Assembly (NCBI GenBank): GCA_009692435.1
Contig: SHZE01000001.1
Location: forward strand, 13,243 to 77,242
Direction: 5' to 3'
Source: Deltaproteobacteria bacterium
GTDB taxonomy: Bacteria > Desulfobacterota > Binatia > Bin18
DNA length: 64,000 bases
In this document: positions 3,956-45,767 of the stretch, piece after piece
Numbering within the stretch: position 1 is the stretch's first letter
Layout: the number at the start of each line of letters is the position of its first letter
Made by a program: the position numbers and the translations under genes
Notes under the pieces: generated by a model
The model's database searches: none
Told to the model about the DNA's origin: nothing
The model's input: only the letters and a program-made list of their open reading frames with translations

Positions 3956-3999
3956 CGCATGCTGCTGACGCTACTGGCACCTTAGGAGAGTCCACTAAA

Positions 4000-5038: not shown

Positions 5039-5089
5039 GCCGCGCCTACCAGAAAGGAATCTGCGGAAACCCCGCATGGATGGATGCCA

Positions 5090-7588: not shown

Positions 7589-7608
7589 TTGGGGAGAAGG
7601 AACAAGAG

Positions 7609-8586
7609 ATGAACACGGTTGAAGTAGAAGCAGCGACAATTGAAGAAGCGATCGTGAACGCCCTAAAACAACTGCAGGTTGAGCGGGAGCGTGCCGAGAT
7701 CGAAGTCTTGGCGCAACCGACCAAGGGGTTTTTAGGTATTGGTGGTAAAAAAGCCCGTGTTCGTGCCACTCTCCGAGTGCCGTTATCCGCTCGCATACAA
7801 GAGCCTCCCCCTCCTCCAGTGGAACCACGGCGCCCCACGGAAGCCCAACGCCCGGCGGAACCGCAGCGGGCCGCGGAACCTCGCCGTCAGGCGGAACCTC
7901 AACGCTCGACTGAACCTCGACGGCCAGCAGAACCTCAACGCTCGATTGAACCCCAACACAGGGCAGATCGCCGACCCGTAGAATCCCGACGCCCGGTCGA
8001 ACCTCCACGCCCACGTCCACGACAAGAAGAACCAGCGGGCGAGGCATCATCAGATGCCATTCCTCAGCTCTCCCCGGAAATGAGAGAAAAAGCCTCCGCT
8101 ACCCTGAAAGACATCCTCCAGCGGATGAATACGGAAGCGCGCGTCGCCCTGGAAATACGCGATGGAGAAGCGCTCCTAACCGCCACCGCCACCGGGAACA
8201 CCCCGGAAGGCTTTCTCGTTGGTCATCGCGGACAAACGCTGGATGCCCTGGAATATCTGCTCAATAGCATCATAACCAAAAGCGATGAAACCGAGACTCG
8301 CGTGACGCTCGATATCGAAGGGTATCGGGAACGCCGCTGGAAAAGCTTAGAAAGCCTGGCGTTGCGATTAGGCGAACGAGCCAAGCGGCGGCGCAAGACC
8401 ATTACCCTCAGCCCCATGAGTCCCCGTGACCGTCGCGTGATCCATCTCACACTCCAAGAAGACCCACTCGTGACCACCAAAAGCATGGGACGCGGCTATT
8501 TTCGCCAAGTGACGATCGTGCCCGAAGAAGGCGCACGCCGCGAGCGCGTGCACGGAACTGAACGAGACACAAGCAGCGATTCGTAG
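7609..8586 (+). CDS. khpB: RNA-binding protein Jag/KhpB (Jag_N + KH + R3H), with an internal Pro/Arg/Glu-rich tandem-repeat linker
   Basis: Jag_N motif (EVEAATIEEAI, GFLGIGGKKARVRA) and C-terminal KH/R3H (RRVIHLTLQED), in the conserved yidC-jag-mnmE position. The central part carries (A/T)EPQR(S/A)xEPRRP repeats. Confidence 0.8.
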   Translation: MNTVEVEAATIEEAIVNALKQLQVERERAEIEVLAQPTKGFLGIGGKKARVRATLRVPLSARIQEPPPPPVEPRRPTEAQRPAEPQRAAEPRRQAEPQRSTEPRRPAEPQRSIEPQHRADRRPVESRRPVEPPRPRPRQEEPAGEASSDAIPQLSPEMREKASATLKDILQRMNTEARVALEIRDGEALLTATATGNTPEGFLVGHRGQTLDALEYLLNSIITKSDETETRVTLDIEGYRERRWKSLESLALRLGERAKRRRKTITLSPMSPRDRRVIHLTLQEDPLVTTKSMGRGYFRQVTIVPEEGARRERVHGTERDTSSDS

Positions 8587-8606
8587 TCGCGCGGGGCGTC
8601 TGGTTT

Positions 8607-8647
8607 GAGACTTGAGGTCTGAGGTTTTTTTACGTTTTACGTTTTGA
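8607..8647 (+). terminator. Post-jag terminator region: GAGACTTGAGGTCTGAGG hairpin, T7 tract, then a half ACGTTTT element
   Basis: agacttgaggtct stem-loop followed by ttttttt, then tacgttttacgttttga (one arm of the ACGTAAA palindromic family). Confidence 0.5.
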
Positions 8648-8659
8648 TTTCTTCCCCAC

Positions 8660-10048
8660 GTGTACGCCCATGACACAATCGCCGCGATTGCTACCCCTCC
8701 TGGTCACGGTGGAGTAGCGATCATTCGCATGAGCGGTCCCCACGCAGAGACCATCGCGCGCCAAGCGTTTCTCTTTTCCCAGCCACGCGAAACCTTGCAG
8801 TCTCATTATTGCTACCTCGGCCAGGTCCGCGACCCCGAGACCGGCCACTGCTTTGACCAAGCCTTGTTGGTCGCCATGCGCGCGCCGCACAGCTATACCG
8901 GGGAAGAGGTAGTCGAGATTCATTGTCATGGCGGACAGCTCCTCTCACACCGCGTCCTTGCGGTCATGCTTCGGCAAGGGGCGCGCATGGCCGAGCCTGG
9001 GGAATTCACCAAACGCGCGTTTCTCAATAATCGGCTCGACCTCTCGCAAGCAGAAGCGGTCCTGGACCTCATCCACGCCAAATCAAACCAGGGACTCAAC
9101 CTAGCGTGGGAACAACTCTCAGGTCGCTTGTCCGATGTCTGTATGACATTGCGCGAACGACTAGTTGGGCTGACGGCCTATATCGAAGCCTTTATCGACT
9201 TTCCCGACGAAGACCTACCCGAAAAAGCTCAGCACGAATTGGACGCCGAGATGAACGTCCTGGCAACCGACATCGCCACCTTGGCCGCGACATTTACCCA
9301 AGGAAAAATCTACCGCGAAGGGTGCCGGACGGTGATTGTGGGAAAGCCGAATGTGGGGAAGTCGAGCCTATTAAATCTGCTCTCAGGAACAGAACGCGCG
9401 ATTGTGACCTCTATCCCTGGCACAACACGGGACATTCTTGAAGAAACCGTGACCCTCAACGGGATTCCGCTGGTGATATGGGATACCGCCGGGCTGCGGG
9501 AAACCAGCGATGTCGTCGAACAAATAGGAGTGGAACGCGCGAAAGCTGGAATACAAGCGGCAGAGCTCGTGCTGGCGGTTTTTGATGCTTCACAACCTCT
9601 AGACGTGCAGGATGAAGCCGTGCTCTCGACCATCCAACAGAAAAGAACCATCCCGATTCTCAACAAAGTCGATTTACCCATGGTCGTGTCCGCAGCGGAT
9701 TTGCACCCGCAACCGCACCTGATGCCCCCGGTGTTGCTCTCAACCACCACAGGTGTTGGTCTTGAGGCACTAGGCAAAAGCGTCAGACACGCCCTTTTTA
9801 CCCAGGAATCAACACTCACGGAAAACGAACCAGGAGCAACCGTGCTCCGCGTCCGTCATCATGACGCGCTGATCAAAGCGGAAGAGATGCTTCGTCAGGC
9901 TCGGCAAAACTTGCACGGCGGGATTCCGCTTGATCTGCTCGCGGTTGATCTCCGTACCGCGCTCGATCATATTGGCGAGATCACCGGTCATGTAAACACA
10001 GAAGATATTCTCGATCGCGTCTTTCGCGATTTTTGTATCGGGAAGTAA
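8660..10048 (+). CDS. mnmE: tRNA modification GTPase MnmE
   Basis: N-terminus [16 protein letters not shown]-domain [12 protein letters not shown]...DTAG, C-terminal CIGK; GTG start. Confidence 0.9.
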
Positions 10049-10055
10049 GGAAGCT

Positions 10056-11918
10056 ATGGTCTACGATATTATTGTTGTCGGGGCTGGTCATGCTGGAATC
10101 GAAGCGGCTCTCGCCGCTGCCCGGCTAGGATGCCAGACGTTGATGCTCACTCTGAATTTGGACCACATCGGCCAGATGTCCTGTAACCCTGCTATTGGCG
10201 GGATTGGCAAAAGCCATTTAGTGCGAGAAATCGACGCCCTAGGTGGAGAAATGGCGAAGGCCATAGACGAAACCGGCATCCAGTTCCGCGTGCTCAATAT
10301 GCGGAAAGGACCGGCGGTGCGCGCGACTCGCGTACAAGCGGACAAAGCCCTCTATCGACAGCGCATGAAACGCGTGGTCGAAACCACGGACAATCTCACG
10401 CTCCGCCAGGGCAGTGTCGAACGGCTCCTCGTGGAGAACGACGAAGTGCGCGGAGTCGAGACGCAGATTGGTGAAATTTTTCTGGGGCGTAAAGTCATCT
10501 TGACGACGGGGACCTTTCTGAAAGGGCTCATCCATGTGGGCCTCAAGAACTACGCCGCCGGGCGGGCGGGCGACTTCGCGGTTGAAGGCTTGAGCGAACA
10601 TCTGCGCGCGTTGGGATTTCGTGTCGGGCGTCTGAAAACTGGTACCTGTCCACGGCTCGATAGTCGCACCATCGACTACAGTGTCGTTGCCCCTCAGCCT
10701 GGTGACGACCCACCGACTCCGTTGTCGTTCTCGACCGAAAAAATCACGCAATCGCAGATTCCTTGTCATCTGACTTATACCAATGCCAACACCCACCAGG
10801 CGATTCTGGAAGGGCTCGACCGGTCACCGTTATATTCCGGGCTCATTCAGGGGCGTGGACCTCGGTATTGTCCGTCGATTGAGGACAAAGTCGTTCGTTT
10901 TAAGGACAAGCTACGCCATCAGATTTTTCTTGAGCCCGAAGGACGCGACACCGTCGAAGTGTACCCCAATGGCCTGTCGACAAGTTTACCGCTCGATATT
11001 CAGCTCCAGATGGTCCGATCAATTACCGGCTTAGAGAAGGCGGAGATCATGCGCCCTGGCTATGCCATTGAGTATGATTATGCTGACCCAACGCAACTGC
11101 TCCCCACGCTCGAAACTAAGCTGGTACGCGGCCTCCACCACGCCGGACAAATTAACGGCACCACGGGCTATGAAGAAGCGGCGGCCCAAGGACTCATGGC
11201 GGCCATCAACGCGGTGTTAAGCCTACGGGGCGAGGAGCCACTGCTGTTCTCACGTAACCAAGCCTACATCGGGGTGCTGATCGACGATTTAGTGACCAAA
11301 GGGGTCGGTGGCGAGCCCTACCGTATGTTTACCTCACGAGCTGAACACCGGCTGTTACTGCGCGAAGACAACGCTGACCTCAGACTGCGAGCCTTCGGCT
11401 ATCGGATCGGCCTGGTGAACGAAGCGGACCACCACAAAACCGAAACCAAAAATCAGCGGATCGTCAGCGAAACGAAACGGCTAGAAGAAGTCGTGCTCAC
11501 CCCAACCGAAGCGACCAACGCGGTCTTAGCATCCTTTGCCAGCGCCGCGCTGAAAAGCCCAACCTCACTGGCACAGATTCTCCGCAGACCAGAAATTTCG
11601 TTCGACACGATTCAGCGGATATCGCCTTCTCCATCCGCGCTGCTACGAGAAGCAGCGACCGAGGTCGAGGTTGCCATCAAATACTCCGGCTATATCCGTC
11701 GCCAGGAAGAGGGAGTGGAGCGCATGCGTCATCTGGAAGAACTGCGCATTCCACACACGCTAGATTACACCAGGGTGTCGAGCTTATCGGCTGAGGTCCG
11801 CGAGAAGCTGACCTCCATACGCCCAGCATCCTTGGGGCAAGCAGCGCGGATTCCGGGGATGACACCCGCCGCGCTGTCGCTGTTAGCAATTCACCTCAAA
11901 CGAGTAAGCGTCGCGTAA
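10056..11918 (+). CDS. mnmG: tRNA uridine 5-carboxymethylaminomethyl modification enzyme MnmG (GidA)
   Basis: FAD-binding N-terminus [16 protein letters not shown] and full-length GidA conservation. Confidence 0.95.
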
Positions 11919-11961
11919 TTTGCCATGCTAGAACGGTTTGATTTTGTATGAAGAAATCGTC

Positions 11962-12003
11962 TACAGGTTCCCTCTCCCAGCCGGGAGAGGGTCAGAGTGA
12001 GGG
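11962..12003. repeat. 40-bp palindrome-containing dispersed element (copy 1): CCCTCTCCCAGCCGGGAGAGGG + TCAGAGTGAGGGGGAT
   Basis: Perfect 9-bp stem with 4-nt loop. A near-identical copy lies in inverted orientation at 46670-46712. Confidence 0.6.
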
Positions 12004-12064
12004 GGATCCGGAAAGCGCTCTATTCACTCATGCGAAAAACGCTATTGATCAGGAGCAGACACGG

Positions 12065-12730
12065 ATGCGGCGCGAAGGAGCGCAGCAGTTCGCCCTCACG
12101 CTCTCCGAGGAAACCGTCTCCCAGTTCGCCACGTTCATTGCCGAAATCCAGCGCTGGTCCACAATCGCCGACCTGCTCTCACAAACCGACCCGGCAACGC
12201 TGATTCGCAAACACATTCTCGATTCTCTCGCCTTACTCCCCTGGATTCCTCAGGGAAGCCGGGTGCTTGATCTCGGCAGTGGTGCGGGATTTCCTGGCCT
12301 CCCACTGGCCATCGCCGCCCCAGGTATCAGCGTCACGCTGATTGAAGCCCGACGCAAACGCGCCAATTTCCTCAAAGCCTCCATCCGGACACTCGGCCTG
12401 CGCAACGTCAACGCCTACGAAGGACGAGCGGAGCACTTGTCACACGAAGATACCCTACAGGCAGCCTTCGACATCATCGTGACCCGTGCCACGTGGAGCA
12501 TTGCCTTATTTCTCACTCTCGCACGCCCATTTCTGCGTCCAGACGGAATCGTCATGGCCATGAAAGGACCCAAACTCCAGCAAGAGCTTGAGGAACTGCG
12601 AGATGACATCGAAAAAACCGGCTTCTCACATACTGACACCAAGGCCTACACCCTGGCCGGAAACGCGCAGCGCAATATCGCTTTCTTTAGTCGGACATCT
12701 GTACCTAAGAAGCTGTTGATAAACCTTTAA
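12065..12730 (+). CDS. rsmG: 16S rRNA (guanine527-N7)-methyltransferase RsmG (GidB); start moved downstream of the repeat element
   Basis: SAM motif VLDLGSGAGFPGLPLAIA and conserved RsmG C-terminus. The ORF-track start at 11948 would translate the palindromic repeat; the Met at 12065 gives a typical ~220 aa RsmG. Confidence 0.75.
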   Translation: MRREGAQQFALTLSEETVSQFATFIAEIQRWSTIADLLSQTDPATLIRKHILDSLALLPWIPQGSRVLDLGSGAGFPGLPLAIAAPGISVTLIEARRKRANFLKASIRTLGLRNVNAYEGRAEHLSHEDTLQAAFDIIVTRATWSIALFLTLARPFLRPDGIVMAMKGPKLQQELEELRDDIEKTGFSHTDTKAYTLAGNAQRNIAFFSRTSVPKKLLINL

Positions 12731-17408: not shown

Positions 17409-17879
17409 TTACGCACATTTGCTTAAACAGTCACGGATAGGATCAAGTTCGGGGAGTTTTCCCGCGTCTTCCGAAACCCAGGCGTATTGCACCACGCCTT
17501 TCTTATCAACAACGAAGGCCGAGCGTTTCGAGACTCCTTTGAAGCCGAGTAAGCTTTCGTAAATCGATCCGTAGGCAGTCGATGCTTCTTTATTAAAATC
17601 ACTGAGCAATGGAAAGTTGTACCCTTCCTTCGCTGCCCACGCGTCAAGTGAGAAAGGACTGTCCACACTAATGCCGACGACCTGAGTGTTTTCGTTTTGT
17701 AAGGTATTGATGTTGTCTCGCACGGAGCAAAATTCCTTGGTTCAGCCACCGGTGAAGGCGAGCGGTACGAATAAAAGCACGACGTTCTGCTTTCCTTGAT
17801 ACTCACTGAGCTTGAAGTCCTTCATTTTGTTGGTCTTCAGGCTAAAATCTGGCGCTTGCTGTCCGACTTGAACACTCAT
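17409..17879 (-). CDS. bcp: Bcp/PrxQ-type peroxiredoxin with in-frame TGA (17742-17744) at the peroxidatic-Cys position; candidate selenocysteine (Sec) protein, 156 aa
   Basis: Read through the TGA, the protein is [14 protein letters not shown]...[13 protein letters not shown][U][10 protein letters not shown]... and aligns with E. coli Bcp (...[20 protein letters not shown]...). The TGA falls exactly on the peroxidatic Cys of the PxxxTxxC motif, and the resolving Cys lies 5 residues later. The ORF track splits it into 17409..17723 plus an unannotated 5' part. The ATG overlaps the gyrA stop (ATGA). Confidence 0.7.
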
Positions 17880-20389
17880 AAGTCCTCCTCTGTTGTTGTG
17901 GTTGGGTTATCTTCTTCGGCGACCGTTGCGATTGTCGCCTCTTCCGCGACTATTTCATCCTCTTTTTCGGCGAGCAAGGCAAGACTGACCACGCGCTCTT
18001 CGGAGTTCGTCGTAACCAATCGTACACCTTGGGTGTTTCGTCCGATGACGCGTAATTCAACCATTCGCAGGCGAATGATTCTACCAGTATCAGTCACGAG
18101 CATCACGTGATCGTCGTCCGTGACTTGGCGCACGCTAATCACTTCGCCACTTCTTTCAGTCGTGCGCATGGTGATAATGCCTTTACCCCCACGTGATTGC
18201 CGTCGATATTCTTCAATCTCACTGCGTTTTCCGTATCCCTTGGCGGAGACAGTGAGCAGGGTCGCTCCAGTGTTAATCGTCTCAAGAGATACAACCGCAT
18301 CTGCCTCTTCGAGCGCGATGCCTTTGACGCCATAGGTTCCCCGTCCAGTTGAGCGGACTTCTTCTTCGGCAAAGCGGATGGCTTGTCCGTTCTTGGTGGA
18401 CAGCACGATTTGGTGGGTGCCATCGGTCAGGCGCACGCCAATCACTTCGTCGTCATCTTCGAGCGCGAGTGCGATAATGCCATCGCGCCGGGGATTGGAG
18501 TAGGACATCAATTCGGTTTTCTTTACTAACCCTTTGCGCGTGGCGAAGATAATATATTTTCCCTCTTGGAATTCACGCACTGGCAAGAAGGCGGAGATTT
18601 TCTCGTTCTCCCGGAGCGGCAACAGATTGACAATGGCTTTGCCCTTTGCCGTGCGTCCACCGAGCGGGATTTCGTGTACCTTGATCCAGTACACCCGCCC
18701 AATGGTCGTGAAACACAAGAAGTATGAATGGGTCGAAGAGATAAACAGATGTTCAACGAAATCCTCTTCCCGTGTCGCCGCGCCCATGACGCCTTTTCCC
18801 CCGCGTCGTTGCGAGCGATAGAGCGTGGGGGAATTGCGCTTCACGTACCCTTCATGGGAGATCGTCACGACCATGTCCACTTCAGCAATCAGGTCTTCAT
18901 CAGAAATGTTGGTAGTGTCGGTGACAATTTCTGTCCGCCGGTCATCAGCGAAGCGGGTACGAACGTCTTTCAGCTCGTTAACAATTAGGGTATCGATTTC
19001 TTGCGCACTCGCGAGCACGGTTTGGAGCCGCTGAATCTGAGCCACCGTTTCGTTGTGCTCGTCGAGAATTTTTCCCTGCTCCAGTTGAGTCAATCGCTGC
19101 AAACGCATTTCCAGAATCGCTTGCGCTTGAGGTTCACTCAGAGAGAATGCGCTCATGAGTCCTTGCCGCACGCTGGCGGGATTCTGTCCGTTGCGAATGA
19201 GCTGAATCATCGCGTCGAGATTCTCTAACGCGATTTTCAACCCAGCCAAAATATGGAGGCGGTCTTGGGCTTTTTTCAGTTCAAACGCCGTACGGCGGCG
19301 CACCACTTCTCGGCGATGGGCTAGAAAGAAGAGCAGCGTGTCCTTGAGGGTCAGAACCTGCGGGCGGCCATCAACAATGGCCAGCATAATGACGCCGAAC
19401 GAATCCTGCATCGGCGTCATGCGGTGCAGTTGATTGACAACAATAGTGGGAACCGCGTCGCGTTTGAGTTCGATGACAATACGCATGCCATCGCGATCCG
19501 ATTCGTCGCGGAGGTCCGAGATACCGTCGATGCGTTTTTCATTGACCAGTTCGGCAATGCGCTCAATCAAGCGGGCTTTGTTCACCTGGAAAGGAATTTC
19601 GGTGACGATAATACTGTTCTTGCCACTTTTCTCGTTCGTCTCCACCAACGTTCGAGCACGCATCTGTATGATGCCTCTGCCAGTTTCGTAGGCGTCGCGA
19701 ATGCCGGAAGTGCCGTAAATGAATCCAGCCGTGGGAAAATCAGGGCCGGGAATGTACTGCATGAGGTCGGCGTTGGTGAGAGAAGGATTGGCTAAGAGGG
19801 ATAGGAGTCCGGCAACGACTTCACCAAGGTTGTGTGGCGGGATATTCGTGGACATCCCGACCGCGATGCCGGAAGAACCGTTAATAAGTAAATTGGGGAC
19901 TTTGGCTGGTAAGACGACCGGTTCGCTGAGGGTGCCGTCGTAATTTTCCAGAAAATTGACGGTGTCTTGATCAATGTCGGCGAGCATCTCACTCGCAATG
20001 CGCGTCATGCGGATTTCGGTGTACCGCATCGCGGCTGGGGGATCGCCGTCTATCGAGCCGAAGTTCCCCTGCCCGTCGATGAGCGGATAACGCAGAGAAA
20101 AATCTTGGGCCATCCGCACGATGGTGTCATAGACGGCGGTATCACCGTGTGGGTGGTATTTACCAATCACATCGCCAACGATACGCGCCGATTTCTTATA
20201 GGCGCGGTTCCAATCGTTGCCGAGGTCGGACATGGCATACAGCACCCGACGATGAACAGGCTTCAGACCGTCGCGGACATCGGGGAGCGCTCTCCCGATG
20301 ATGACGCTCATGGCGTAGTCCATGTAGGACTGGCGCATTTCCTGTTCGATATTAACGGGGGTTATTAATCCGTTAGTGTGATGTTCCAT
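17876..20389 (-). CDS. gyrA: DNA gyrase subunit A
   Basis: Motifs [24 protein letters not shown], active-site Tyr region and the GyrA-box region; 837 aa with an acidic tail. Confidence 0.95.
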
Positions 20390-20401
20390 AAATGAAAATA
20401 A

Positions 20402-20495
20402 ACCGTAAAGCGTAAAACGTAAGTCAAAAGAAGACGTAAAAAGCTGAGCGTGAACGTTAATTTTTCATGTGCGTTTTACGCTTAGCTTTTTACGT

Positions 20496-20497
<2 letters not shown>
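20402..20497. repeat. ACGTAAA-unit palindromic element (family member 3 of 5); about 25-bp stem
   Basis: AGACGTAAAAAGCTGAGCGTGAACG pairs with CGTTTTACGCTTAGCTTTTTACGTCT; flanked by further CGTAAAG/CGTAAAACGTAAG units, in the gyrB-gyrA intergenic space. Confidence 0.65.
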
Positions 20498-22937
<2,440 letters not shown>

Positions 22938-23030
22938 CTATTGAAATTTTCCTCAAAAAAGTATCACGCCATAGAGTTTAAGTAAAGGTGAACACTGAGA
23001 GAAAAATCGTTCCAAAACAGTTTTACAAAA

Positions 23031-24185
23031 TTAAAAAATACGCATGGGCATGACGACATAAGAAAAATTTTGATCTTTCTCAGCTTGGATTAGGCACGGA
23101 CTCGATTCGTCCTTGAGCAGGAACGAGATTTTTTGTTCCCCTTCGAGGACAGAAAGCATCTCGATGAGGTACCGACCATTGAACCCGACGACGAGGTTTT
23201 CGCCCGCATAATCGATAGCGATTTCCTCGACCCCTTCGCCAAGGTCCGGGGTGTTGACCGAGATTTCCATTTTGTCTTTCTCGATCTGGATTTTGACGCC
23301 ACGCGATCGTTCGGTGGTGAGAATCAAGAGACGACGAAGGGCACTTAGTAGGTCCTCGCGAGAAAAGCTGACGACGTGTTTGGTATCTATCGGGATGACC
23401 TGGTTGTAGTCGGGAAAATCCCCCTCGACCAGGCGCATGGAGAGTTCCGTCGAGTCCCTAGCAACGTTAAGTGTTGAGCCGTGAAGCACGAGTTCAGTCT
23501 TTTCGTCTCCTTTTTCGAGTAATTTGCGGGCTTCAACGAGTCCTTTCCGGGGGAGAATCGCGCTAGGCCAGTCGATGGGCACAGTGCCGAACGCTTCGCG
23601 TTCGATGAAAGAAAGTCGGTGCCCGTCACTGGCAACCATTCTGAGACGGCCGTTTTCCTGCCCCTTTGGGGCCGTGCGGCCCTCCAAATAGACTCCGCTG
23701 AGGTTGGGGCGGGATTCATCGGGAGAGGCCGCGAAAAGGGTTTTCTCGATCATTTCCCGTAACGTCTGTCCGGCAATGGCAACTGATACTAACGGTTTCT
23801 TTCCTTCGACGTCGGCGGCAGGCGTGGAAACGAGTGCTGGGAATTCTTTAGGATCGAGGCTAGCCATACGGAATCTCGACTTGCCACTGCTGACCTCGAC
23901 CCAGCCGTTCCCGGTGGATCGTAACGAGACGCGATCTGGAGAAAGCTCTCGAACGATCTCGTACAGTTTGCGTGCGTCCGTCGTGACAGCCCCTTCTTTC
24001 TTGACTGTGGCTCTGCACTGCTGACGGAGGCCGATTTCGAGATCTGTCGCTCGGAGCGAGATCGCTCCGTCTTTCGATTCGATGAGTACATGCGAGAGGA
24101 TCGGCAAAGATGAGCGTTTCTCAACTACGCCTTGCACTAAATACAAACAGTGTAACAAATCTTCCTTTTCGAGAATGCTTTCCAT
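23031..24185 (-). CDS. dnaN: DNA polymerase III beta sliding clamp
   Basis: Three-domain, ~380 aa beta-clamp; the N-terminus LPILSHVLIE and overall length are consistent; located directly downstream of dnaA/oriC. Confidence 0.9.
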   Translation of the reverse strand: MESILEKEDLLHCLYLVQGVVEKRSSLPILSHVLIESKDGAISLRATDLEIGLRQQCRATVKKEGAVTTDARKLYEIVRELSPDRVSLRSTGNGWVEVSSGKSRFRMASLDPKEFPALVSTPAADVEGKKPLVSVAIAGQTLREMIEKTLFAASPDESRPNLSGVYLEGRTAPKGQENGRLRMVASDGHRLSFIEREAFGTVPIDWPSAILPRKGLVEARKLLEKGDEKTELVLHGSTLNVARDSTELSMRLVEGDFPDYNQVIPIDTKHVVSFSREDLLSALRRLLILTTERSRGVKIQIEKDKMEISVNTPDLGEGVEEIAIDYAGENLVVGFNGRYLIEMLSVLEGEQKISFLLKDESSPCLIQAEKDQNFSYVVMPMRIF

Positions 24186-24504
24186 TCCTCTCTTCCCTTT
24201 CTTATATTCCCAATTTTTTTCCGTTCATTCGGAGTCTTCACATTTTCATGCCTCCTTTTTTCTACTGCTACTTCTTATTTTTTCATAATAGTAGCAGTAG
24301 GGGGTGTGAATATGTGGATAAGTGGCTTAACTATATAGATTCGTTAAAATAGTTATTCACACCCCCTGTGAATAACCCTGTGAATAACTTGACCGAGGCA
24401 AAAAGTTATCCACAGGTTATCCACAGGTTATCCACAGGTTATTCACAGGTTATGCACAGGGTTATGCACAGGGTTATGCACACCCTCTCAAACCCTGTTT
24501 CCAA
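24186..24504. other. oriC: Chromosomal replication origin oriC (dnaA-dnaN intergenic): AT-rich unwinding element plus a DnaA-box cluster
   Basis: AT-rich tract 24190-24300 with a perfect 10-bp inverted repeat CTACTGCTAC/GTAGCAGTAG. Consensus DnaA boxes TGTGGATAA (24313), TGTGAATAA x2 (24367, 24379) and TTATTCACA (24353). Followed by a head-to-tail array of 7 boxes. Confidence 0.85.
24406..24490 (+). repeat. Array of 7 tandem DnaA boxes with 11-12 bp period: (TTATCCACAGG)x3, TTATTCACAGG, (TTATGCACAGGG)x3
   Basis: Seen directly in the sequence. There are no spacers between the units, so this is not a CRISPR array. Three boxes are the perfect consensus TTATCCACA. Confidence 0.85.
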
Positions 24505-25866
24505 TTAATTTTCTTCTCCGAAAACTATGTTTTCAATCCGTGCGAGAACGGCCCGTAGCTCTTCATCCTGCTTGAGGCGTTTCTCAATAGAAGCACATGC
24601 GTATAACGCTGTTGTGTGATTTTTACCACCAAAGCGGACGCCAATCATGGGGTATGAAGCCCCAGCTAACTTGCGGCACAGGAACATGGCGACTTGACGC
24701 GGAAAGGCGACCATCTGTGTCCGTTTCTTAGAGGTCAGATCAATGACCCGGATAGCGAAGTATTTGCACACCGCTTTCTGGACCGTTTCGACCGAAACTT
24801 CTTTGTCCTTATCTTTTCCCCCTCTCATGAGGTTTTGTAGGACCTGCTGAGCAAGGTCAATCGTAATCGGACTGTCAGTCATGGTAGAAAAGGCCCCGAG
24901 CTTGGTGAGCCCGCCCTCAAGCTCGCGAACATTAGCGGTCACGTGGGTCGCGATAAAGAGCGAGACATCGTGAGGGAGCTGGATTTTCTTTTGTTGCGCC
25001 TTTTTTTGGAGGATGGCGACGCGAGTTTCAAGGTCTGGTGGTTGGATATCGGCGATCAATCCCCACTCGAAGCGATTTCGCAGCCGCTCTTCGAGTCCTT
25101 CAATCTCGTTGGGAAATTTATCGGACGTGAGAATGATCTGCTTGTGGGATTGGTGAAGCGTATTGAACGTATGGAAAAACTCTTCTTGGGTCCGTTCGCG
25201 GCCGGAGAGAAACTGGATGTCGTCGATGATTAAGACATCCGCCTGGCGGAACTTATTCTTAAAGTCATCCATGCGGTCACGCCGTAGATGCGCGATCAAT
25301 TCATTAGTGAAAGTTTCTGACGATAAATAGAAAACACTCTTCCCACCTTGCTTCACGATCGTTTCGTGCCCAATCGCGTTAATGAGGTGAGTTTTTCCTA
25401 ACCCGACACCACCATAGATAAAAAGCGGGTTATAGTGCTTGCCTGGATGTTCGGCGACCGCGCGTGCGGCGGCATTGGCAAATTGATTGCCAGCACCAAC
25501 GATAAAAGAGGAGAACGTATAATTGGAGACCAGCCCGTTCTTTTTCGTGCCAGTGGAGCGTGAGGACTCCCCCTTTGTGTTCTCCCGGTCGTCATATTGT
25601 TGTGACGGAAATAGCTCGCCCTGTTGTTTGGCCGCGACATGGATGACGATCTGGACCGCGAAGCCAAGAATGGTTTCGAGCGATTTCCGAATATGGGGTA
25701 GGAGATTTTCTAATAACCAGTCACGGAACAACGAATTCGGCACTTCAAGGTGCAGCGTGTCCTCGCGGAGTGCGAGGGGTTTCACTGGCTTGAGCCAGGT
25801 TTCCGTCGTGACATGACCGACCTTCTTCTCAACCTCATTAAGGACCTGCCCCCATATATGCTGCAC
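24505..25866 (-). CDS. dnaA: Chromosomal replication initiator DnaA (start trimmed to the GTG at 25866)
   Basis: AAA+ motifs GVGLGKTHL, sensor regions and C-terminal DnaA-box-binding domain. The 58 N-terminal codons of the 511-aa ORF cover a palindromic pair of DnaA boxes (GTTATTCACACCTGTGAATAAC, 25899-25920) and have no DnaA domain-I similarity, so the true start is likely downstream. Confidence 0.85.
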   Translation of the reverse strand: MQHIWGQVLNEVEKKVGHVTTETWLKPVKPLALREDTLHLEVPNSLFRDWLLENLLPHIRKSLETILGFAVQIVIHVAAKQQGELFPSQQYDDRENTKGESSRSTGTKKNGLVSNYTFSSFIVGAGNQFANAAARAVAEHPGKHYNPLFIYGGVGLGKTHLINAIGHETIVKQGGKSVFYLSSETFTNELIAHLRRDRMDDFKNKFRQADVLIIDDIQFLSGRERTQEEFFHTFNTLHQSHKQIILTSDKFPNEIEGLEERLRNRFEWGLIADIQPPDLETRVAILQKKAQQKKIQLPHDVSLFIATHVTANVRELEGGLTKLGAFSTMTDSPITIDLAQQVLQNLMRGGKDKDKEVSVETVQKAVCKYFAIRVIDLTSKKRTQMVAFPRQVAMFLCRKLAGASYPMIGVRFGGKNHTTALYACASIEKRLKQDEELRAVLARIENIVFGEEN

Positions 25867-26267
25867 GCCGCCCCCCTCCCGTTGTTTCGCGAGAAGGGAG
25901 TTATTCACACCTGTGAATAACTCTCCAACATGACCTAATGACTGAAGTTTTTCCCCTTGCACCACAAAGTTCTCCACATACTTCTCCCCCGCCTTTTCTC
26001 TCTCCATCCCAGGGAGGCCCTGGCATCCGCCAAGCATCAATGGGGAAGAGGGGGTAAGCCTTCACTATTTTTACTGTTCTGTGTCGGAAAAAAAGAGATT
26101 GAACTGAATGAGTATGGGAATGGAGTAGACTCTTTTTTTTCCCTTTGCAAGCAAAAAAATGTACTCCGGCAGAAGTGGTTGTGTTGTCTATCGTTTTGGT
26201 TTGCCTTGACTCACAAAATGTCGGATGGTAACAGGATGAAAGTCTTTCACGCGCAGGGAACATTTCT

Positions 26268-37031: not shown

Positions 37032-37445
37032 CTAGGTCATTTCTTTCTCTGGAATTCGGGCGGTCTCCCCTTTTTCCGCGATAGTTCTGATGAGTGCTAT
37101 CAGTTTGGGGTCTGAAAGCTCAACAAGATCACGATGCCAACAGGTATTAGCCTCCTGGTCAGGGGTGTCCCCGACCGTTTGCTCAACCTTGATGCTGAGC
37201 GTCGTCAGCAGCGCTTCGTCAACGAGCGCATAATCGAAGTTCGAGAAAAAATCTCTTGTAGAGGCGAGAGCAATGACGACCTGTTCCAGGTTTGACCTGT
37301 CGTCCTCGATATACCAAACCGAGAGGGTTGAGTTCTCTGGCACAAAGTCTTCAAGGGGACCGTTCCGTATCTGATCATCCGTCGGAGAAGTCCCCATGAT
37401 CTCGTGCCATCTCCCCTTACGGATACTCCGTAGGAGAAACGGCAC
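37032..37445 (-). CDS. Hypothetical protein (islet gene 3 of 3)
   Basis: 137 aa, acidic, no recognisable motif; its 5' end overlaps the upstream gene by 29 nt. Confidence 0.4.
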   Translation of the reverse strand: MPFLLRSIRKGRWHEIMGTSPTDDQIRNGPLEDFVPENSTLSVWYIEDDRSNLEQVVIALASTRDFFSNFDYALVDEALLTTLSIKVEQTVGDTPDQEANTCWHRDLVELSDPKLIALIRTIAEKGETARIPEKEMT

Positions 37446-38112
37446 TACGGGTGCTCTCTAGTTGATAGTGTACTTGTTTTAAGTCTTCACGAAGCGAGGC
37501 ATACTTTTCGTGATCAATTGCCTGCCGCAGATAGGGAATTGCGTGTGGGTCATCAAGAGACGCTAGCCCTAGCGCTGCCCCGTCTCGCACCAACACCGAG
37601 GTGCTAAACAGGCTTCTTTCCAGCAACCACAAGCGATCATGATGGGACAAAGGATGATCCACACGACCAAGCCAACGTAGCGTTTCCGCTGCGACTTCTG
37701 CGTTAACGTTGTCGTTGACAGTCAAGGAAGTGATTACCGCCATTGCCGTCTTTCCGTACTGCCTTACCAGATGTACTAACTCCCTGGAGAAGTCGTTCTC
37801 CATCCCGTCCTCGAAAGTAAGGCTTCGTGCTTCCCGGAAAAGAGCCTTGAGAATTTTTCCCAATGGTTCCTCTTGGGTGATTATGTTTCCTGGTCTTTCT
37901 TGGGAGAATAGGTCGATTTCTTCTAGCAGTTCACGCTGGGTAGTCGTGTTGTCTTTACTCACGAGGCTCGTCCGAACAACCGTTAAATCCTCTTTTGAAT
38001 CTCCCGTGAGTATGAGGTAGTGAGCAGAGTCCCATACTCGTTGTGGCTTGTAAAAGCTGTGAACTGCCAAGTCCGTTCCTGCTGTTGAAGAAGGAACCAT
38101 GTCGGGTCTCAT
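37417..38112 (-). CDS. Hypothetical protein with C-terminal HEAT-like (PBS-lyase type) repeats (islet gene 2 of 3)
   Basis: Repeats of the form AAxALGxLxDPxAIPYLRQAI (AEVAAETLRWLGRVDHP; DGAALGLASLDDPHAIPYLRQAI); 4-nt ATGA overlap with the upstream gene. Confidence 0.4.
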   Translation of the reverse strand: MRPDMVPSSTAGTDLAVHSFYKPQRVWDSAHYLILTGDSKEDLTVVRTSLVSKDNTTTQRELLEEIDLFSQERPGNIITQEEPLGKILKALFREARSLTFEDGMENDFSRELVHLVRQYGKTAMAVITSLTVNDNVNAEVAAETLRWLGRVDHPLSHHDRLWLLERSLFSTSVLVRDGAALGLASLDDPHAIPYLRQAIDHEKYASLREDLKQVHYQLESTRSAVSPTEYP

Positions 38113-38894
38113 GGAATATCCCCTTCTCTAGCGATTTCCTGTCCGAGGGTCACTAACTCGTTAAAGATTTGGCCTAACTGATCTTGTGGCAAGTCCCCTG
38201 GAAAATCCGGGTGGGTGTTAATATCCAATTCTAATCGACAACCCGTACCCTTTTGATGAAACCTAAATCTCGCCTCTGGGACCAACGGAAGTTCAGCTAT
38301 TGCCCAAAAAGACACGGACCATTTGGAAAGACGATTGATCCTAAGTCCTGCAATCGCCGAACTGGAGTTTCTTGCACGATTGATTTGATAGAGAAAATCA
38401 CTTGCTCCTTCACCTTCAAGGGCGAGTTGTAGACCGGGAAGATACGCGGCAAGCTGTCGGTACCCGGTTTGCTGATCATCAACAGGCTGCCAGAGTGTTG
38501 CTCCGAAGGCTAGCCGTTGTGTAACAGGACACTCCCTAGATTCTAACCACCGGGTCATAAGCTGGGGAAAAATATTCAGTGATTCAGGGAGAGGGCCAAT
38601 CATTGTAGGTCCTCCTCTCTCTGACTCCGCATTGTCTGCTGCACGATAAAGCCAATCAACCCGAGACGGCTGAATGGTAAGGATTAGCCTTCTGTCCGCA
38701 AAAGAGCCCTCTTCGCGTCGTATTCCCAGTTTCCGCTGCGTCACTTGTGTTTCTGAAGGTTCCCCAACGAGAGACGTCCACCAGCGGGGTTCAGCCTCGA
38801 TTTGAGCAGCAGGACTGAGAAAGGCAGTCATCCTCATACTTTCCACTTCCCATGCGGAGAGTGGGGGGCGCGCTAGTGTTTTTATCGCAGTCAT
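38109..38894 (-). CDS. Hypothetical protein (islet gene 1 of 3)
   Basis: 261 aa; no ATPase, nuclease or other motif recognised. An AT-rich promoter-like region (TTGAGA-N17-TAAAAT on the - strand, about 38920-38950) lies between it and the tRNA. Confidence 0.4.
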   Translation of the reverse strand: MTAIKTLARPPLSAWEVESMRMTAFLSPAAQIEAEPRWWTSLVGEPSETQVTQRKLGIRREEGSFADRRLILTIQPSRVDWLYRAADNAESERGGPTMIGPLPESLNIFPQLMTRWLESRECPVTQRLAFGATLWQPVDDQQTGYRQLAAYLPGLQLALEGEGASDFLYQINRARNSSSAIAGLRINRLSKWSVSFWAIAELPLVPEARFRFHQKGTGCRLELDINTHPDFPGDLPQDQLGQIFNELVTLGQEIAREGDIP

Positions 38895-38973: not shown

Positions 38974-39047
38974 TGCCCCCGGCGCGATTCGAACGCACGA
39001 CCACAGGATTAGGAATCCTGTGCTCTATCCACCTGAGCTACGGGGGC
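38974..39047 (-). tRNA. tRNA-Arg (anticodon CCT)
   Basis: Reverse complement folds as a 74-nt cloverleaf: acceptor stem GCCCCCG/CGGGGGC, D-arm GCTC..GAGC, anticodon arm CAGGA-TTCCTAA-TCCTG (anticodon CCU), T-arm GTGCG-TTCGAAT-CGCGC, discriminator A; CCA not encoded. Confidence 0.85.
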
Positions 39048-39121: not shown

Positions 39122-40066
39122 ATGCCCGCTCGCCGCACGCCAAACCTCCCACCACTACGAGGGGTGGGGAATAAATATCCACCCTTCGCGGTTGTAGAAA
39201 GCTCTCGCAAAATACTGAACATTTGGCATACGGGGCTGGTCGAAAGGCGACCTGCTCCTGGTGTCTCGTTTTGTCATTACTGCGGAACAGCGCATTGCGG
39301 AGGCATTATGCGGAGCGACATGGCGAAAGTAATTGTGGAACGCCCCCGTCGAGGTTGGGATGGTGGGCATAAAAAACCACGACAGGACCTGGACGCCTTA
39401 CCCACGAAGGTTGGGATGAAGAGAGAGATTATCGGAGAGAAATACCTCAACGAAAATCTTTCTCCGTTGCGCCGCTTTTTGGCTTCGCAAGTTGGGCGGC
39501 CGTGGAATAAAGTCTATGCGGATATCAGCGCATACTTGCGACCAGCCAATGTCGTCCAACAACATGTCCGGTCTCATCTGGAAGATTTTGTCGCCCTTAA
39601 TTTCTCCGTCAATAAAGATGGTGAACTCGAACAACCGCACAGATGGTGGTGGCGAGGAGGGCGACAATCCCTCTATGTCGATCCTCGTGATGGGATTCTC
39701 AAAGCGACCCTGAGCGAGAAAGATCGCAAACGCCGGGCACTGGCGCGGCGACAAGAGCTGGCACAAAAGAAGGCCAACGCGGACACCATTGTTGTCGATC
39801 GGATGCAGGAACTGCGACGCCTGAATGGCGTGTGGTTTTTCGTCGAGTATGCGCCACTGCCCTACCCAAGCCCGTTCCCACTCAGAAAGAAAGAGGGTGA
39901 AGTCAGTGCGGGAGCACCGAATGCGCTCACGCACTATGACGTTGTGCTTCGTGCTTACGTTGGCCCCAAGGATGCCTTTGCGTTCAAAGGGCGTTACGCG
40001 GTCAAGAAGCGACAATTGGCGAGTGACGAACTGCGGCGCTATCGCATCCAGAATGTCGCTCGATGA
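39122..40066 (+). CDS. Hypothetical basic protein (possible start at the internal Met about 39308)
   Basis: Arg/Lys-rich with CxxC..C motif CHYCGTAHCGG; no family recognised; lies between the tRNA and a transposase remnant. Confidence 0.3.
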   Translation: MPARRTPNLPPLRGVGNKYPPFAVVESSRKILNIWHTGLVERRPAPGVSFCHYCGTAHCGGIMRSDMAKVIVERPRRGWDGGHKKPRQDLDALPTKVGMKREIIGEKYLNENLSPLRRFLASQVGRPWNKVYADISAYLRPANVVQQHVRSHLEDFVALNFSVNKDGELEQPHRWWWRGGRQSLYVDPRDGILKATLSEKDRKRRALARRQELAQKKANADTIVVDRMQELRRLNGVWFFVEYAPLPYPSPFPLRKKEGEVSAGAPNALTHYDVVLRAYVGPKDAFAFKGRYAVKKRQLASDELRRYRIQNVAR

Positions 40067-40125
40067 GAGCAGGGCGTTTTCCACGTAGGGAGTCGAGACC
40101 CCACACTTACCGAAACAACAGAGGC

Positions 40126-40548
40126 TCATGTCATTGATCTGTGCTGAGTGACAAGCCGAGCGATAAACTTCGGACTGGTGCGGTTGAGATTGATCTTCTG
40201 TTCGCACATGGCCAGGTACTGGTGTAGATACTTCTTGTGAACCCCGCAAAAGGGGCGCTGGAAATTGCGCGCCGTGGGCCACAAGCCCTCAATGGTGTTG
40301 GTATAGACCTCCCGGATGCCCTCGCCATCCTCGCCCCGCGCCCATGCTTTCTGGCCGTGACACCCCGTGTGGGGAGTGCGCTTGCTTCGGGTGTCGCCCT
40401 GCCCCTCAGCAGTGTACCCCGTGGTAGCTCTGGGGGTGTCTTCATGTCCGTAGTGGTGCCACGTCTTGCCCTCGGTCTGGTGCCCCCGCGCACGCGCCAT
40501 TGCCCCCTGTAGCGCCCGACGGTCCCAACAATGGGAGAGGTCATACAA
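40126..40548 (-). mobile_element. IS1595-family (ISXO2-like) transposase, C-terminal fragment only (remnant)
   Basis: C-terminal motif YTNTIEGLWPTARNFQRPFCGVHKKYLHQYLAMCEQKINLNR matches the IS1595 DDE-transposase C-terminus (HTNTIEGFWS...H..S.KHL..Y..EF.FR.N.R). The N-terminal ~150 aa and any terminal inverted repeats are missing. Confidence 0.6.
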
Positions 40549-43908: not shown

Positions 43909-45111
43909 ATGTTCGAAACCCGCATTTTTGAACAGATTCGCGAATATTGGATCACCGATCAAAACCGGCGGGGGACCCGAAAACAATCGATTCCATCGTT
44001 ACAAGATTTCGTCACGCTGATAGAGACCGCCTTCATTGTCAGTCTTAAAAGGGAAGAAGAGCGCTTTCCAAAATTCTCCGTCGTGCTGCTAGCAGAAAAA
44101 GACAAAGAGAAAGAACAGGAGTCTTCAGGTTTCAGGCAAGAAATCCTGATCTTGGATAGAAGACTTTCCTTTAGTCCTGACTCTCTGGCGAAACTCTCAC
44201 CTGCATGCGACCCGCAGACAGGTGCCTTCATTGTTTCCCCACCAGAGGATAGTTCAGGGAACTATGAAATTTGGGGCCTCATGTTTTTTGGTCCGGTGAC
44301 CAATCGATTCAACGAAATACCTATTTCCGACGAATTCATTACCTCTCGCCCAGATGTGCTCACAGTTACAGTGGTCTCACTCGGGTCTCTGGTAGTCAGC
44401 AGAGGCAATAGTCAGATCGGGCGTTTCGTTCTTGGTAACTTTAGTCCGGCAACTCCAACGCCTTTTGTGTCGCAAGCGATGGGCGAGTTTATGATCGCGT
44501 CAATCAGGAATAGCCAGGGATATCAGAGGTATGGAAATTTATATTGGCACATTTATCGAGATGCCTTAGAGCATTTGTTGCTGGAGGCCGGAGCCAGAGG
44601 ACATGGCGGAACTATAATTGTGATACCGGGAAACAAAGTGACCGAATGCAAGTCGAGTTTTCAAGCCAGGTATTCTCTACAAACCACACTGCGAATTATA
44701 GAGTTGATTGAGCAGACTCTTGCGTTACCGCACCCGTGTGATTTTTCTCGTTATCTTTCCTATAATCGTGCGACTATGGGCCGCTTGAATTTTTTGGCTC
44801 AGTTAGTTTGCGTGGATGGAGCCTTACTTCTTTCGGACCAGTTTGAGCCTATTGCTTTCGGGACAACACTAACGGCACAAGCGTGGCAAGGCGGTGTTGT
44901 TGTTGGGCCGGACAGTTTTAGTAGTGGAGGTCAAGAGTTTAATCTGTCGAGGCTCGGAACTCGCCACAATTCCGCGGCGAATTTCGTCGGCGCGTTTCCA
45001 TATTGTTACGGCTTCGTCTTATCACAAGATGGACCTGTTCGGGGGTTCATTAGGAGGGATGAAAACACACTGTATTGCTGGCCGGATTGTACAGTGTCCA
45101 TGTTCATATGA
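43909..45111 (+). CDS. Divergent DAC (DisA_N, diadenylate-cyclase fold) domain protein with an unknown ~200-aa N-terminal domain; lies in a low-GC islet
   Basis: The C-terminal half aligns to the DisA/CdaA DAC domain: GHGGTIIVIPG ~ (K)IGALIVFE; VDGALLLS ~ HDGAVII; LGTRHNSAANFV ~ LGTRHRAAL; FVLSQDGPVRGF ~ VVSEETGIISL. The canonical HDGA and RHR motifs are altered to VDGA and RHN. Local GC (~48%) is well below the ~60% flanks. Confidence 0.5.
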   Translation: MFETRIFEQIREYWITDQNRRGTRKQSIPSLQDFVTLIETAFIVSLKREEERFPKFSVVLLAEKDKEKEQESSGFRQEILILDRRLSFSPDSLAKLSPACDPQTGAFIVSPPEDSSGNYEIWGLMFFGPVTNRFNEIPISDEFITSRPDVLTVTVVSLGSLVVSRGNSQIGRFVLGNFSPATPTPFVSQAMGEFMIASIRNSQGYQRYGNLYWHIYRDALEHLLLEAGARGHGGTIIVIPGNKVTECKSSFQARYSLQTTLRIIELIEQTLALPHPCDFSRYLSYNRATMGRLNFLAQLVCVDGALLLSDQFEPIAFGTTLTAQAWQGGVVVGPDSFSSGGQEFNLSRLGTRHNSAANFVGAFPYCYGFVLSQDGPVRGFIRRDENTLYCWPDCTVSMFI

Positions 45112-45266
45112 TGAACAGGCGTTATTTCAATAGGACGCAGTCGGAATCCAACTTCCCAATTCATTGCACCGTATTACCGTCCAGTGGAGGTTCCTGCTTA
45201 ACCCGGACGGATACGGTTCGAGCAAACGATCTTGACGGCAACCGATAAGCCGACGACGGGAAATGC

Positions 45267-45536
45267 ATGACAAGGGTTCAAAGAATCCGGCTCAAGATCA
45301 TTGATCGGGACTATTATCTTTCCTCTCATGCGGAAGATGAGATGCTGGACGATGGATTGGAGCGGGGCGATGTCGAGAACGCCATATTGAAGGGACGCGT
45401 TCAGAAAAAATTATCTAAAGATGCGCGGGGCACTCGTTATCGCATCGAAGGTCCAACAAAAGATGGCCGGCTGATCCATGTAGTTTGTCGATTTCAGGAA
45501 GATGGTAGTCTCATTGTGGTTACAGATACGCGCTAA
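45267..45536 (+). CDS. DUF4258-family protein (putative toxin of a TA pair)
   Basis: 89 aa; motif DYYLSSHAEDEMLDDGLERGDVENAIL resembles the DUF4258 core; paired with a downstream zinc-finger gene. Confidence 0.45.
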   Translation: MTRVQRIRLKIIDRDYYLSSHAEDEMLDDGLERGDVENAILKGRVQKKLSKDARGTRYRIEGPTKDGRLIHVVCRFQEDGSLIVVTDTR

Positions 45537-45546
45537 CGGAGGAAAC

Positions 45547-45767
45547 ATGACGTGCGAATTTTGCGGAGGCGAGACAAGAAAAAGAAAGTTAAGCGACAAC
45601 ATTGGCTTCAGGGAAAGCTCTATATCGTCGAGAATGTTGAAGCCGAGGTCTGTCCGCAGTGCGGAGAACGATACTTCCACGCAACGACGCTGGACGCAAT
45701 TGACCAGTATTTGCTAGCTGACCATCACATCAAAGAGCAAATTCACGTCGAGGTCGTCAGCTTGTAG
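45547..45767 (+). pseudogene. YgiT/MqsA-type zinc-finger protein (putative antitoxin), disrupted by a 1-nt frameshift in an A-rich tract
   Basis: Frame 1 gives MTCEFCGGETRKRK and frame 0 continues VKRQHWLQGKLYIVENVEAEVCPQCGERYFHATTLDAIDQYL, together matching the TIGR03831 pattern CxxCGG...VCxxCGExY. The frames switch inside gacaagaaaaagaaagtt near 45585; adding one A restores the protein. Confidence 0.5.

Follow-up and report, generated by a model that had tools for sequence, protein, structure and literature searches.

Does a protein that has the fold of a diadenylate cyclase (DAC) and departs from the textbook active-site motifs still make a cyclic dinucleotide, or is it a dead relative of these enzymes? 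The question is raised by one gene in a 64,000-nt stretch of a Deltaproteobacteria metagenome-assembled genome (MAG; contig SHZE01000001.1), called the window below. Positions are counted within the window and residues within the encoded 400-aa protein. The first-pass annotation had described a DAC-fold domain with VDGA and RHN in place of HDGA and RHR, fused to an N-terminal region that matched nothing known, and had suggested an inactive sensor or decoy or the use of another nucleotide substrate. Our analysis favors, with moderate confidence, an active DAC-type cyclic-dinucleotide synthase that is regulated through its N-terminal half. Judged by its sequence, the protein is soluble and consists of two domains, DACNV and DAC; it contains no hydrophobic segment (the maximum Kyte-Doolittle value in a 19-residue window was 1.38).

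Fold and active site of the C-terminal domain

The gene is complete (Table 1), and an exact-match look-up identified its product as NCBI MSQ46818.1, annotated as a "hypothetical protein" in a Deltaproteobacteria MAG. An independent assembly contig encodes this protein too, flanked by the same genes. The start codon is backed by M1 and by the N-terminus beginning MFE, both conserved in homologs. The open reading frame and the peptides first read from it were all recovered: GHGGT at residues 231-235, VDGA at 302-305, GTRHNSA at 350-356, SQDGP at 372-376 and GNYEIWGLMFFGP at 117-129.

The assignment of a DAC fold, proposed by eye in the first-pass annotation, was upheld by the family to which the protein belongs. 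By itself the query gave no match to the DAC family PF02457 (DisA_N), nothing in NCBIfam or PADLOC and only noise in a phmmer search of the PDB. A word-indexed search yielded 172 homologs, collinear with the query from end to end; of the 65 full-length homologs that were aligned, 47 matched PF02457 (best 4e-8). The sequence-level link of the query to DACs is transitive, via these homologs. Profile-to-profile comparison with hhalign was significant: the full family profile aligned with Thermotoga maritima DisA at E 3.6e-5, with three active-site motifs in register, and a profile of the C-terminal half aligned with three DisA sequences at E 8.2e-6 over 129 columns. When the PDB was searched with the family profile, the matches to CdaM (E 0.33) and CdaA (E 1.4) were limited to the RHxS..S stretch. 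An AlphaFold2 model of the full-length protein, built from the 65-sequence alignment, reached a predicted local distance difference test score (pLDDT) of 90.2 and a predicted template modeling score (pTM) of 0.84, and all 48 Foldseek matches at E<=1e-3 were DACs. The DAC alpha/beta fold of the C-terminal half was thereby confirmed. About 135 residues align with DisA, and because identity to solved DACs is only 13-19% the protein belongs to a clade separate from ordinary CdaA and DisA, as had been suspected.

Conservation was counted in 112 full-length family sequences (30-79% identity). A larger motif set of 238 members includes more remote representatives; spacing was counted in 236 of them. 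The GHGGT stretch, aligned to NFGALIFLV of DisA, has G233 in 112/112 and H232 in 105/112 sequences. D303 and A305 of the DGA motif are invariant (112/112 each), with G304 in 110/112. R352 was found in 112/112 and H353 in 111/112. The third motif keeps S372 in every sequence, D374 and G375 in 110 each and P376 in 108; it aligns to S127-R128-R129-R130-N131 of DisA, and its acidic residue resembles that of SEETG in CdaA. The alignments show strong purifying selection on the putative catalytic residues D303-G304-A305, G350/R352/H353 and S372 across several hundred 50%-identity clusters. The retained residues are those that contact the ribose-phosphate backbone or catalyze in DisA, CdaA and PanS.

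The two substitutions noted earlier proved to be signatures common to the family, not peculiarities of this protein. The residue preceding DGA is V in 61 and I in 41 of the 112 sequences; in the larger set it is V or I in 205 of 238 and never His. According to the PDB sequences, DisA of T. maritima reads K-M-DGA, GTRHRTA and VSRRRN, and the DisA chains 9y4s (Mycobacterium tuberculosis) and 7y0d (Mycobacterium smegmatis) read K-M-DGA, GTRHRSA and VSHSMN, whereas the CdaA-type cyclase 8ofo reads L-H-DGA, GTRHRAA and VSEETG. HDGA had been taken as the canonical form throughout DACs; with K-M-DGA in three DisA sequences this is not so. His before DGA is thus a feature of CdaA, and DisA, the closest structure, has Met. 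The query does not satisfy a strict RHR (R352-H353-N354). At the third position the 112 sequences have N in 72, R in 16 and K in 8, and the 238 members have N in 123, R in 52, S in 17, K in 13, H in 9 and others in the remainder. The textbook RHR is kept by 22% of the family in an otherwise identical framework, and the third position is unconstrained in the DACNV family.

DACs with divergent motifs can be active. In a 2026 preprint from the Kranzusch laboratory (10.64898/2026.08.10.743927), PanS cyclases with DGF and GGR were active, and motif mutation abolished activity. [quoted passage not shown] Because PanS is active with DGF and GGR, neither the His before DGA nor the second Arg of RHR is required for catalysis. 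Together with the divergent yet active PanS and DS-2C, the conserved motifs point to purifying selection on a working active site, not to decay.

The inactive protein of the first-pass annotation, a pseudo-enzyme that would only bind nucleotide as a receptor, sensor or decoy, is in our view very improbable. It had been argued from the exchange of His for Val and Arg for Asn, thought to remove ligands of ATP and metal; the active enzyme DisA also lacks that His, having Met, and PanS works without the His and without the second Arg. An incomplete RHR, the change of DisA R128-R130 to Q-D-G and a query below the Pfam threshold for DACs are what such a protein might display, but the invariant Asp and the (near-)invariant R352, H353 and S372 are the residues that pseudo-enzymes usually lose, and about a fifth of the family, as counted above, has the full RHR.

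The region between DGA and RH is a second distinguishing feature. The spacing from D303 to R352 is 49 residues vs. 33 in DisA and 37 in PanS, that is, 16 longer than in DisA, and it amounts to 49-50 residues in 205 of 236 members. The hhalign output places two insertions relative to DisA in this extended lid, whose conserved residues are F317, G318, L321, W326, G333 and P334. As the lid sets the base choice in PanS and is longer here, a product other than c-di-AMP is conceivable. An active DAC-fold cyclase that makes a mixed purine-pyrimidine dinucleotide such as 3'3'-cUA, or a linear or asymmetric product, because the lid or an intramolecular pairing of the catalytic with the degenerate domain breaks the two-fold symmetry of the canonical active site, is an unlikely alternative. 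It draws on the precedent of PanS, on a lid conserved in both length and sequence, on a third motif and a third RHR position unlike those of all characterized c-di-AMP synthases, and on an N-terminal half that is predicted to be DAC-like and is devoid of catalytic motifs; yet c-di-AMP is still the product of DS-2C and of some PanS enzymes whose motifs diverge, the DisA chains 9y4s and 7y0d (RHRSA) have the same Ser as S355 behind RH, and a face-to-face pairing of the two halves is a supposition.

Near the C-terminus, the family carries a CxxxC stretch, CWPDC in the query, with W391 in 110/112, D393 in 107/112, C394 in 107/112 and C390 in 76/112 sequences. The variants fused to REC-PAS do not have CWPDC and read W-[IV]-P-D-[FYL] instead. 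A redox or metal site would be a guess.

The N-terminal half and the proposed mechanism

The fusion of the DAC domain to an N-terminal region was corroborated, and this region is non-catalytic. It is no longer without a match: PF21751, the "Probable sensor domain DACNV" of Pfam, scored 60.8 bits against a cut-off of 27 and was matched by 65 of 65 aligned homologs. Its conserved residues include E49 (111/112), E50 (112/112), K95 (111/112), D101 (96/112), P148 (112/112), D149 (106/112) and R165 (111/112). The E49-E50 pair with K95, D101, P148-D149 and R165 is a candidate ligand or interface site on the strength of this conservation.

The predicted order of secondary-structure elements in the N-terminal half is that of the C-terminal half, except that a low-confidence loop (residues 127-150) stands in for the RHR helix. 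The model thus predicts a degenerate DAC-like fold, and the protein would be a tandem of a degenerate and a catalytic DAC. By eye, F-D101-P and V-S164-R165-G appear to occupy the positions of M-D-G-A and V-S-R-R in DisA. Should the N-terminal half be truly DAC-like, its designation in Pfam as a "sensor domain" would have to change. In the preprint cited above (10.64898/2026.08.10.743927), DACNG and DACNH are hypothetical sensory modules whose names are credited to a 2023 survey by Galperin.

For the active synthase we propose the following mechanism. As in DACs generally, two catalytic DAC domains would pair head-to-head, each holding one nucleoside triphosphate with a divalent metal, and two 3'-5' bonds would be formed; 3'3'-c-di-AMP would be the likeliest product. 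The N-terminal half may regulate the reaction in cis: it could mask the catalytic face, with autoinhibition released by a ligand or by oligomerization, or scaffold the active dimer. It would then be a cis-acting partner and not a classical small-molecule sensor, by analogy with other nucleotide cyclases whose second domain is degenerate. A bolder version, which we hold only tentatively, takes the DACNV "sensor" to be a degenerate duplicate of the DAC, so that a dead and a live domain would form a covalent pseudo-heterodimer, a novel design for the construction and control of a cyclic-dinucleotide synthase. The dead half would mask the catalytic face until a signal comes or build an asymmetric active site with the live one; combined with the long lid this might give a mixed or linear product, and a subset of these proteins might have been recruited beside SLATT/2TM pore-type effectors, linking the signal to conflict systems.

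Table 1. Features of the DACNV-DAC gene and its product (window positions, all on the + strand)
Feature	Position	Strand	Remarks
DACNV-DAC gene, complete	43909..45111	+	ATG start, 400 codons and TGA
N-terminal half: DACNV region and beta-rich segment	43909..44478	+	residues 1-190; no DGA, no RHR
Pfam PF21751, "Probable sensor domain DACNV"	43981..44283	+	residues 25-125; hmmscan E 1.5e-16
E49-E50, invariant acidic pair	44053..44058	+	conservation across 112 sequences
Catalytic DAC (DisA_N) domain	44479..45108	+	residues 191-400
G-H-G-G-T, start of strand beta1	44599..44613	+	equivalent of the DisA/CdaA "GALI" glycine motif
V302-D303-G304-A305, DGA motif	44812..44823	+	equivalent of M74-D75-G76-A77 of T. 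maritima DisA (hhalign)
Extended lid between DGA and RH	44824..44955	+	residues 306-349
G350-T-R352-H353-N354-S355-A356, RHR-type motif	44956..44976	+	equivalent of R108-H109-R110-T111 of DisA
S372-Q-D374-G375-P376, third active-site motif	45022..45036	+	equivalent of S127-R-R-R-N (DisA), S-E-E-T-G (CdaA)
C390-W-P-D-C394, conserved C-terminal CxxxC	45076..45090	+	no counterpart in DisA/CdaA

Family, neighborhoods and a possible role in conflict

Searched exhaustively with the family profile, a set of 1.84 billion representatives gave 680 clusters (50% identity) at E<=1e-30 and 2517 at 1e-10. Nearly all of the listed family matches are ~400 aa long and covered end to end. Relatives listed at NCBI as "putative sensor domain DACNV-containing protein" (P0068, P0108 and P0112) aligned with 100% coverage; identity to the query was 41% for P0068 from Desulfogranum marinum, again at 100% coverage, and 36% for the Magnetococcus proteins P0112 and P0118. 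Among the species-representative genomes, Magnetococcales account for 37 of 67 assemblies and for all of the 12 that carry 2-3 paralogs. Further members occur in Desulfobacterales, Syntrophales, Nitrospirota, Nitrospinota and a few Gamma- and Betaproteobacteria. The sole archaeal match in 80 loci is a 46%-identical member (L006, 1756-2964) on a 2971-bp contig binned as Candidatus Aenigmatarchaeota; its placement could be a binning artefact or a transfer. Phage matches were not found, and the single plasmid match is remote.

The whole module is also found behind input domains. Four examples of GAF-DACNV-DAC (P0160, P0177, P0187 and P0198; ~598 aa) and three of REC-PAS-DACNV-DAC (P0179, P0194 and P0200; ~670 aa) were detected, and all of them keep DGA, RH and S-[Q/H]-D-G-P. 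Input fusions that keep the motifs are the expected behavior of a working second-messenger output module. That the module is fused as a whole speaks for DACNV as a part integral to the cyclase and not merely an interchangeable sensor.

Genomically, the DACNV-DAC gene behaves as a stand-alone gene. When proteins encoded within +/-4 genes were clustered by BLAST, no neighbor family was present in more than 12 of ~78 loci. A conserved operon partner was sought and rejected, as only lineage synteny recurred (ABC transporter, PAS histidine kinase, TonB receptor, AlaRS and ETF-QO). The query's own subclade (>=50% identity) is metagenomic and shows low GC relative to flanks and variable context; relatives 79, 76 and 70% identical to the query sit in three different contexts. 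The upstream unannotated genes of two loci, L002 and L004, are unrelated to each other and to the genes of the window.

In the window, the cyclase gene lies downstream of a zinc-type alcohol dehydrogenase (ADH) gene and upstream of two small genes on the + strand. The first encodes an 89-aa DUF4258 protein (45267-45536; Pfam E 1.3e-15), and the second, beginning 15 bp after it, a 71-aa protein like an MqsA antitoxin or zinc finger (45552-45767; weak match, E 0.003). By their sequences the two look like a type II toxin-antitoxin (TA) pair. The cyclase gene has a GC content of 0.475 and a GC content at third codon positions (GC3) of 0.476, vs. 0.56-0.58 and 0.62-0.69 in the flanking genes. The DUF4258 gene (GC 0.474) and the MqsA-like gene (0.491) belong to the same low-GC block of ~1.9 kb (43909-45767), which sits between the ADH gene and an MDMPI_N/DinB-like gene. 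A search for repeats flanking the block gave only short matches, probably due to chance. In the close subclade of the query, the cyclase genes are 0.05-0.17 lower in GC than their flanks, with a family-wide median offset of ~0. This difference suggests recent horizontal transfer within the subclade, and in this genome the gene was probably gained horizontally as an accessory gene.

Neither a c-di-AMP phosphodiesterase nor a known receptor was seen among the genes scanned across 64 kb; the search of the window for a c-di-AMP riboswitch or other RNA returned only one tRNA, and a promoter and terminator scan around the cyclase gene gave nothing above chance.

Small proteins with an N-terminal transmembrane (TM) segment are enriched at position -1 of the family loci (10/80 vs. 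17/465; Fisher p=0.003) and are heterogeneous. Effector-like neighbors were observed at three loci. In Salinisphaera (L036), a SLATT_4/DUF4231 gene (9273-9836, +) lies 76 bp downstream of the cyclase gene and matches the PADLOC CBASS "2TM effector" (CBASS being anti-phage systems that signal through cyclic oligonucleotides) at E 1.6e-14. In Methylobacter (L037), a SLATT_5 fragment (2315-2779, +) lies 61 bp upstream; it covers only the C-terminal half of the model and is maybe truncated. In a metagenomic locus whose cyclase is 70% identical to the query (L091, P0006), a PF13239 2TM protein (4217-4765, +) is encoded upstream. L036 and L037 form, with L032, a separate subclade that is 52-70% identical internally. 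Such pairs are possible two-gene modules of a nucleotide signal and a pore effector. Loci L087-L090, from four independent metagenome samples, carry a DUF1780 "putative endonuclease" gene 279 bp upstream of, and on the same strand as, the gene for the closest relative (P0001, 79% identical); this DUF1780 gene is not in the query's window. When ~90 loci and the window were compared, the SLATT/2TM, DUF1780 and remaining -1 proteins had no homologs beyond their seed loci.

The plasmid-borne member (Hymenobacter monticola NZ_CP094535.1; L092) is 21% identical to the query and reads VDGA, GTRHR and VSQDG. A patatin-like phospholipase gene (3020-5269, 749 aa) lies 69 bp upstream of it. Going by its sequence, we judged the phospholipase to be an outer-membrane PlpD-type enzyme and did not count it as a CapV-type CBASS effector: it has a signal peptide, and its long C-terminal region resembles a beta-barrel.

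These neighborhoods bear on the idea that the protein generates the signal of an anti-phage or other conflict system, as DS-2C does in CBASS variants and PanS in Panoptoo, with the effector located elsewhere or lost. We regard this as improbable for the query. The cyclase does share its low-GC block with a TA-like pair, and the contexts of close relatives are variable and rich in accessory genes, L002 having HEPN/nucleotidyltransferase pairs and an S24-methylase fusion; the DUF1780 gene in four samples, the SLATT/2TM neighbors at three loci and the enrichment of small TM proteins fit the same idea. However, no dedicated effector gene adjoins the cyclase gene in the window, where the neighbors are the ADH gene and the TA-like pair, and PADLOC gave no match for the cyclase protein, the pair or the unknown proteins nearby. 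The SLATT/2TM neighbors do not recur among ~90 loci, most loci are in housekeeping synteny (AlaRS, ETF-QO, ABC transporters), REC-PAS and GAF fusions and multiple paralogs per genome typify regulatory signaling rather than defense, and the scarcity of phage and plasmid matches noted above offers the idea little help.

The window as a whole is chromosomal and takes in the region of the replication origin. It includes yidC-jag-mnmE-mnmG-rsmG (5936-12730, +) and gyrA-gyrB-dnaN-dnaA (17876-26040, -), with dnaA at 24505-26040. The cumulative GC skew has its minimum at ~14-16 kb, and at 24-26 kb the GC content falls to 0.486. A HEAT-repeat protein of 231 aa (37417-38112, -) is encoded by a gene that overlaps by 4 bp the gene of a 261-aa protein without a Pfam or PADLOC match (38109-38894, -). 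The tRNA is tRNA-Arg(CCT) (38974-39047, -). Next to it, within 39122-40548, is an open reading frame of 314 aa with no Pfam or PADLOC match, and two overlapping minus-strand frames at 40126-40548, in different reading frames, look by eye like the C-terminus of an IS1595-type transposase and have no Pfam match. The latter region may be a degraded insertion beside the tRNA gene.

Weight of the evidence and comparison with known systems

Several points weigh against an active c-di-AMP synthase controlled by a DAC-like N-terminal half. The query alone did not match PF02457 even at E<=10. The second Arg of RHR is replaced, as are R128 and R130, phosphate ligands in the DisA structures, so that phosphate and metal handling must differ and competence is not guaranteed. 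The lid is much longer than that of any characterized DAC, which leaves room for a product other than c-di-AMP. That the N-terminal half is DAC-like is a prediction from the modeled structure: hhalign of this half against the C-terminal half or DisA was not significant (E ~0.27), which leaves a duplication without sequence-level support. For those relatives that lie beside SLATT/2TM genes, a conflict role would be likelier than housekeeping signaling. Lastly, our literature search found no paper mentioning DACNV and no experimental characterization of the class.

The DACNV-DAC architecture is reportedly catalogued in Galperin's "All DACs in a row" (J Bacteriol 2023). The "DacV" of Corrigan and Grundling is an archaeal class. 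The protein is a further member of a catalogued, experimentally untouched class, not a new kind of system. What may be new is the extended, conserved lid and, as a prediction from the model, the DAC-like nature of DACNV itself.

To our knowledge, what is understood of c-di-AMP comes almost entirely from work on CdaA, DisA and CdaS of Gram-positive bacteria. Signaling by c-di-AMP is essentially unexplored in the groups among which DACNV proteins are common, namely Magnetococcales, Desulfobacterota, Nitrospirota and some Gammaproteobacteria. The conserved signatures turn an apparent pseudo-enzyme into a concrete biochemical target, probably an active enzyme. If the fold of the N-terminal half is correct, the class would be a natural model for control in cis of DAC dimerization, the step on which, as far as we know, all known regulators (GlmM, RadA and CdaR) act. 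Given its long lid, the class may also be a source of new nucleotide signals, after the recently found 3'3'-cUA of PanS.

Compared with DisA, the protein shares a non-His hydrophobic residue before DGA and resembles 9y4s and 7y0d in the Ser-Ala of RH-x-S-A, and its G-P-D aligns with V-P-D of DisA after the second lid strand. In DisA (T. maritima 3c1y, M. smegmatis 7y0d), however, the DAC domain is N-terminal and is followed by a helical spine and a C-terminal helix-hairpin-helix (HhH) DNA-binding domain, whereas in the query it occupies residues 191-400, where the protein ends with neither spine nor HhH. The query also has 16 extra lid residues and reads S-Q-D-G-P where DisA has S-R-R-R-N. With CdaA/DacA it has in common an acidic residue behind the conserved third-motif Ser (S-Q-D vs. 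S-E-E), but it differs in having no TM helices, no H-DGA, SEETG or RHR and no cdaR or glmM neighbors.

DS-2C and PanS are likewise divergent DACs that keep part of DGA/RHR; DS-2C shares the presence of DACNx N-terminal domains, and PanS a lengthened lid. A few DACNV loci have SLATT/2TM neighbors, and most loci are without an effector. DS-2C differs in combining DACNG with DACNH in a CBASS operon, whereas the query has PF21751 only and neither a CD-NTase nor an effector nearby. PanS is a minimal DAC of ~150 aa in a two-gene operon with the S2TM-beta effector PanE, whereas the query has 400 aa, two domains and no 2TM neighbor in the window.

Pseudo-heterodimeric cyclases with one degenerate domain are known from the C1-C2 pair of mammalian class III adenylyl cyclases and from degenerate GGDEF domains. 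As in mammalian C1-C2, a catalytic domain linked to a diverged, dead copy is predicted here; the folds are unrelated and the pairing is, in our case, a supposition. The closest likeness is to the DACNV class itself (PF21751 plus PF02457), with which the protein agrees in collinearity over the full length, in its size of ~400 aa and in its set of motifs, and from which it differs in nothing essential.

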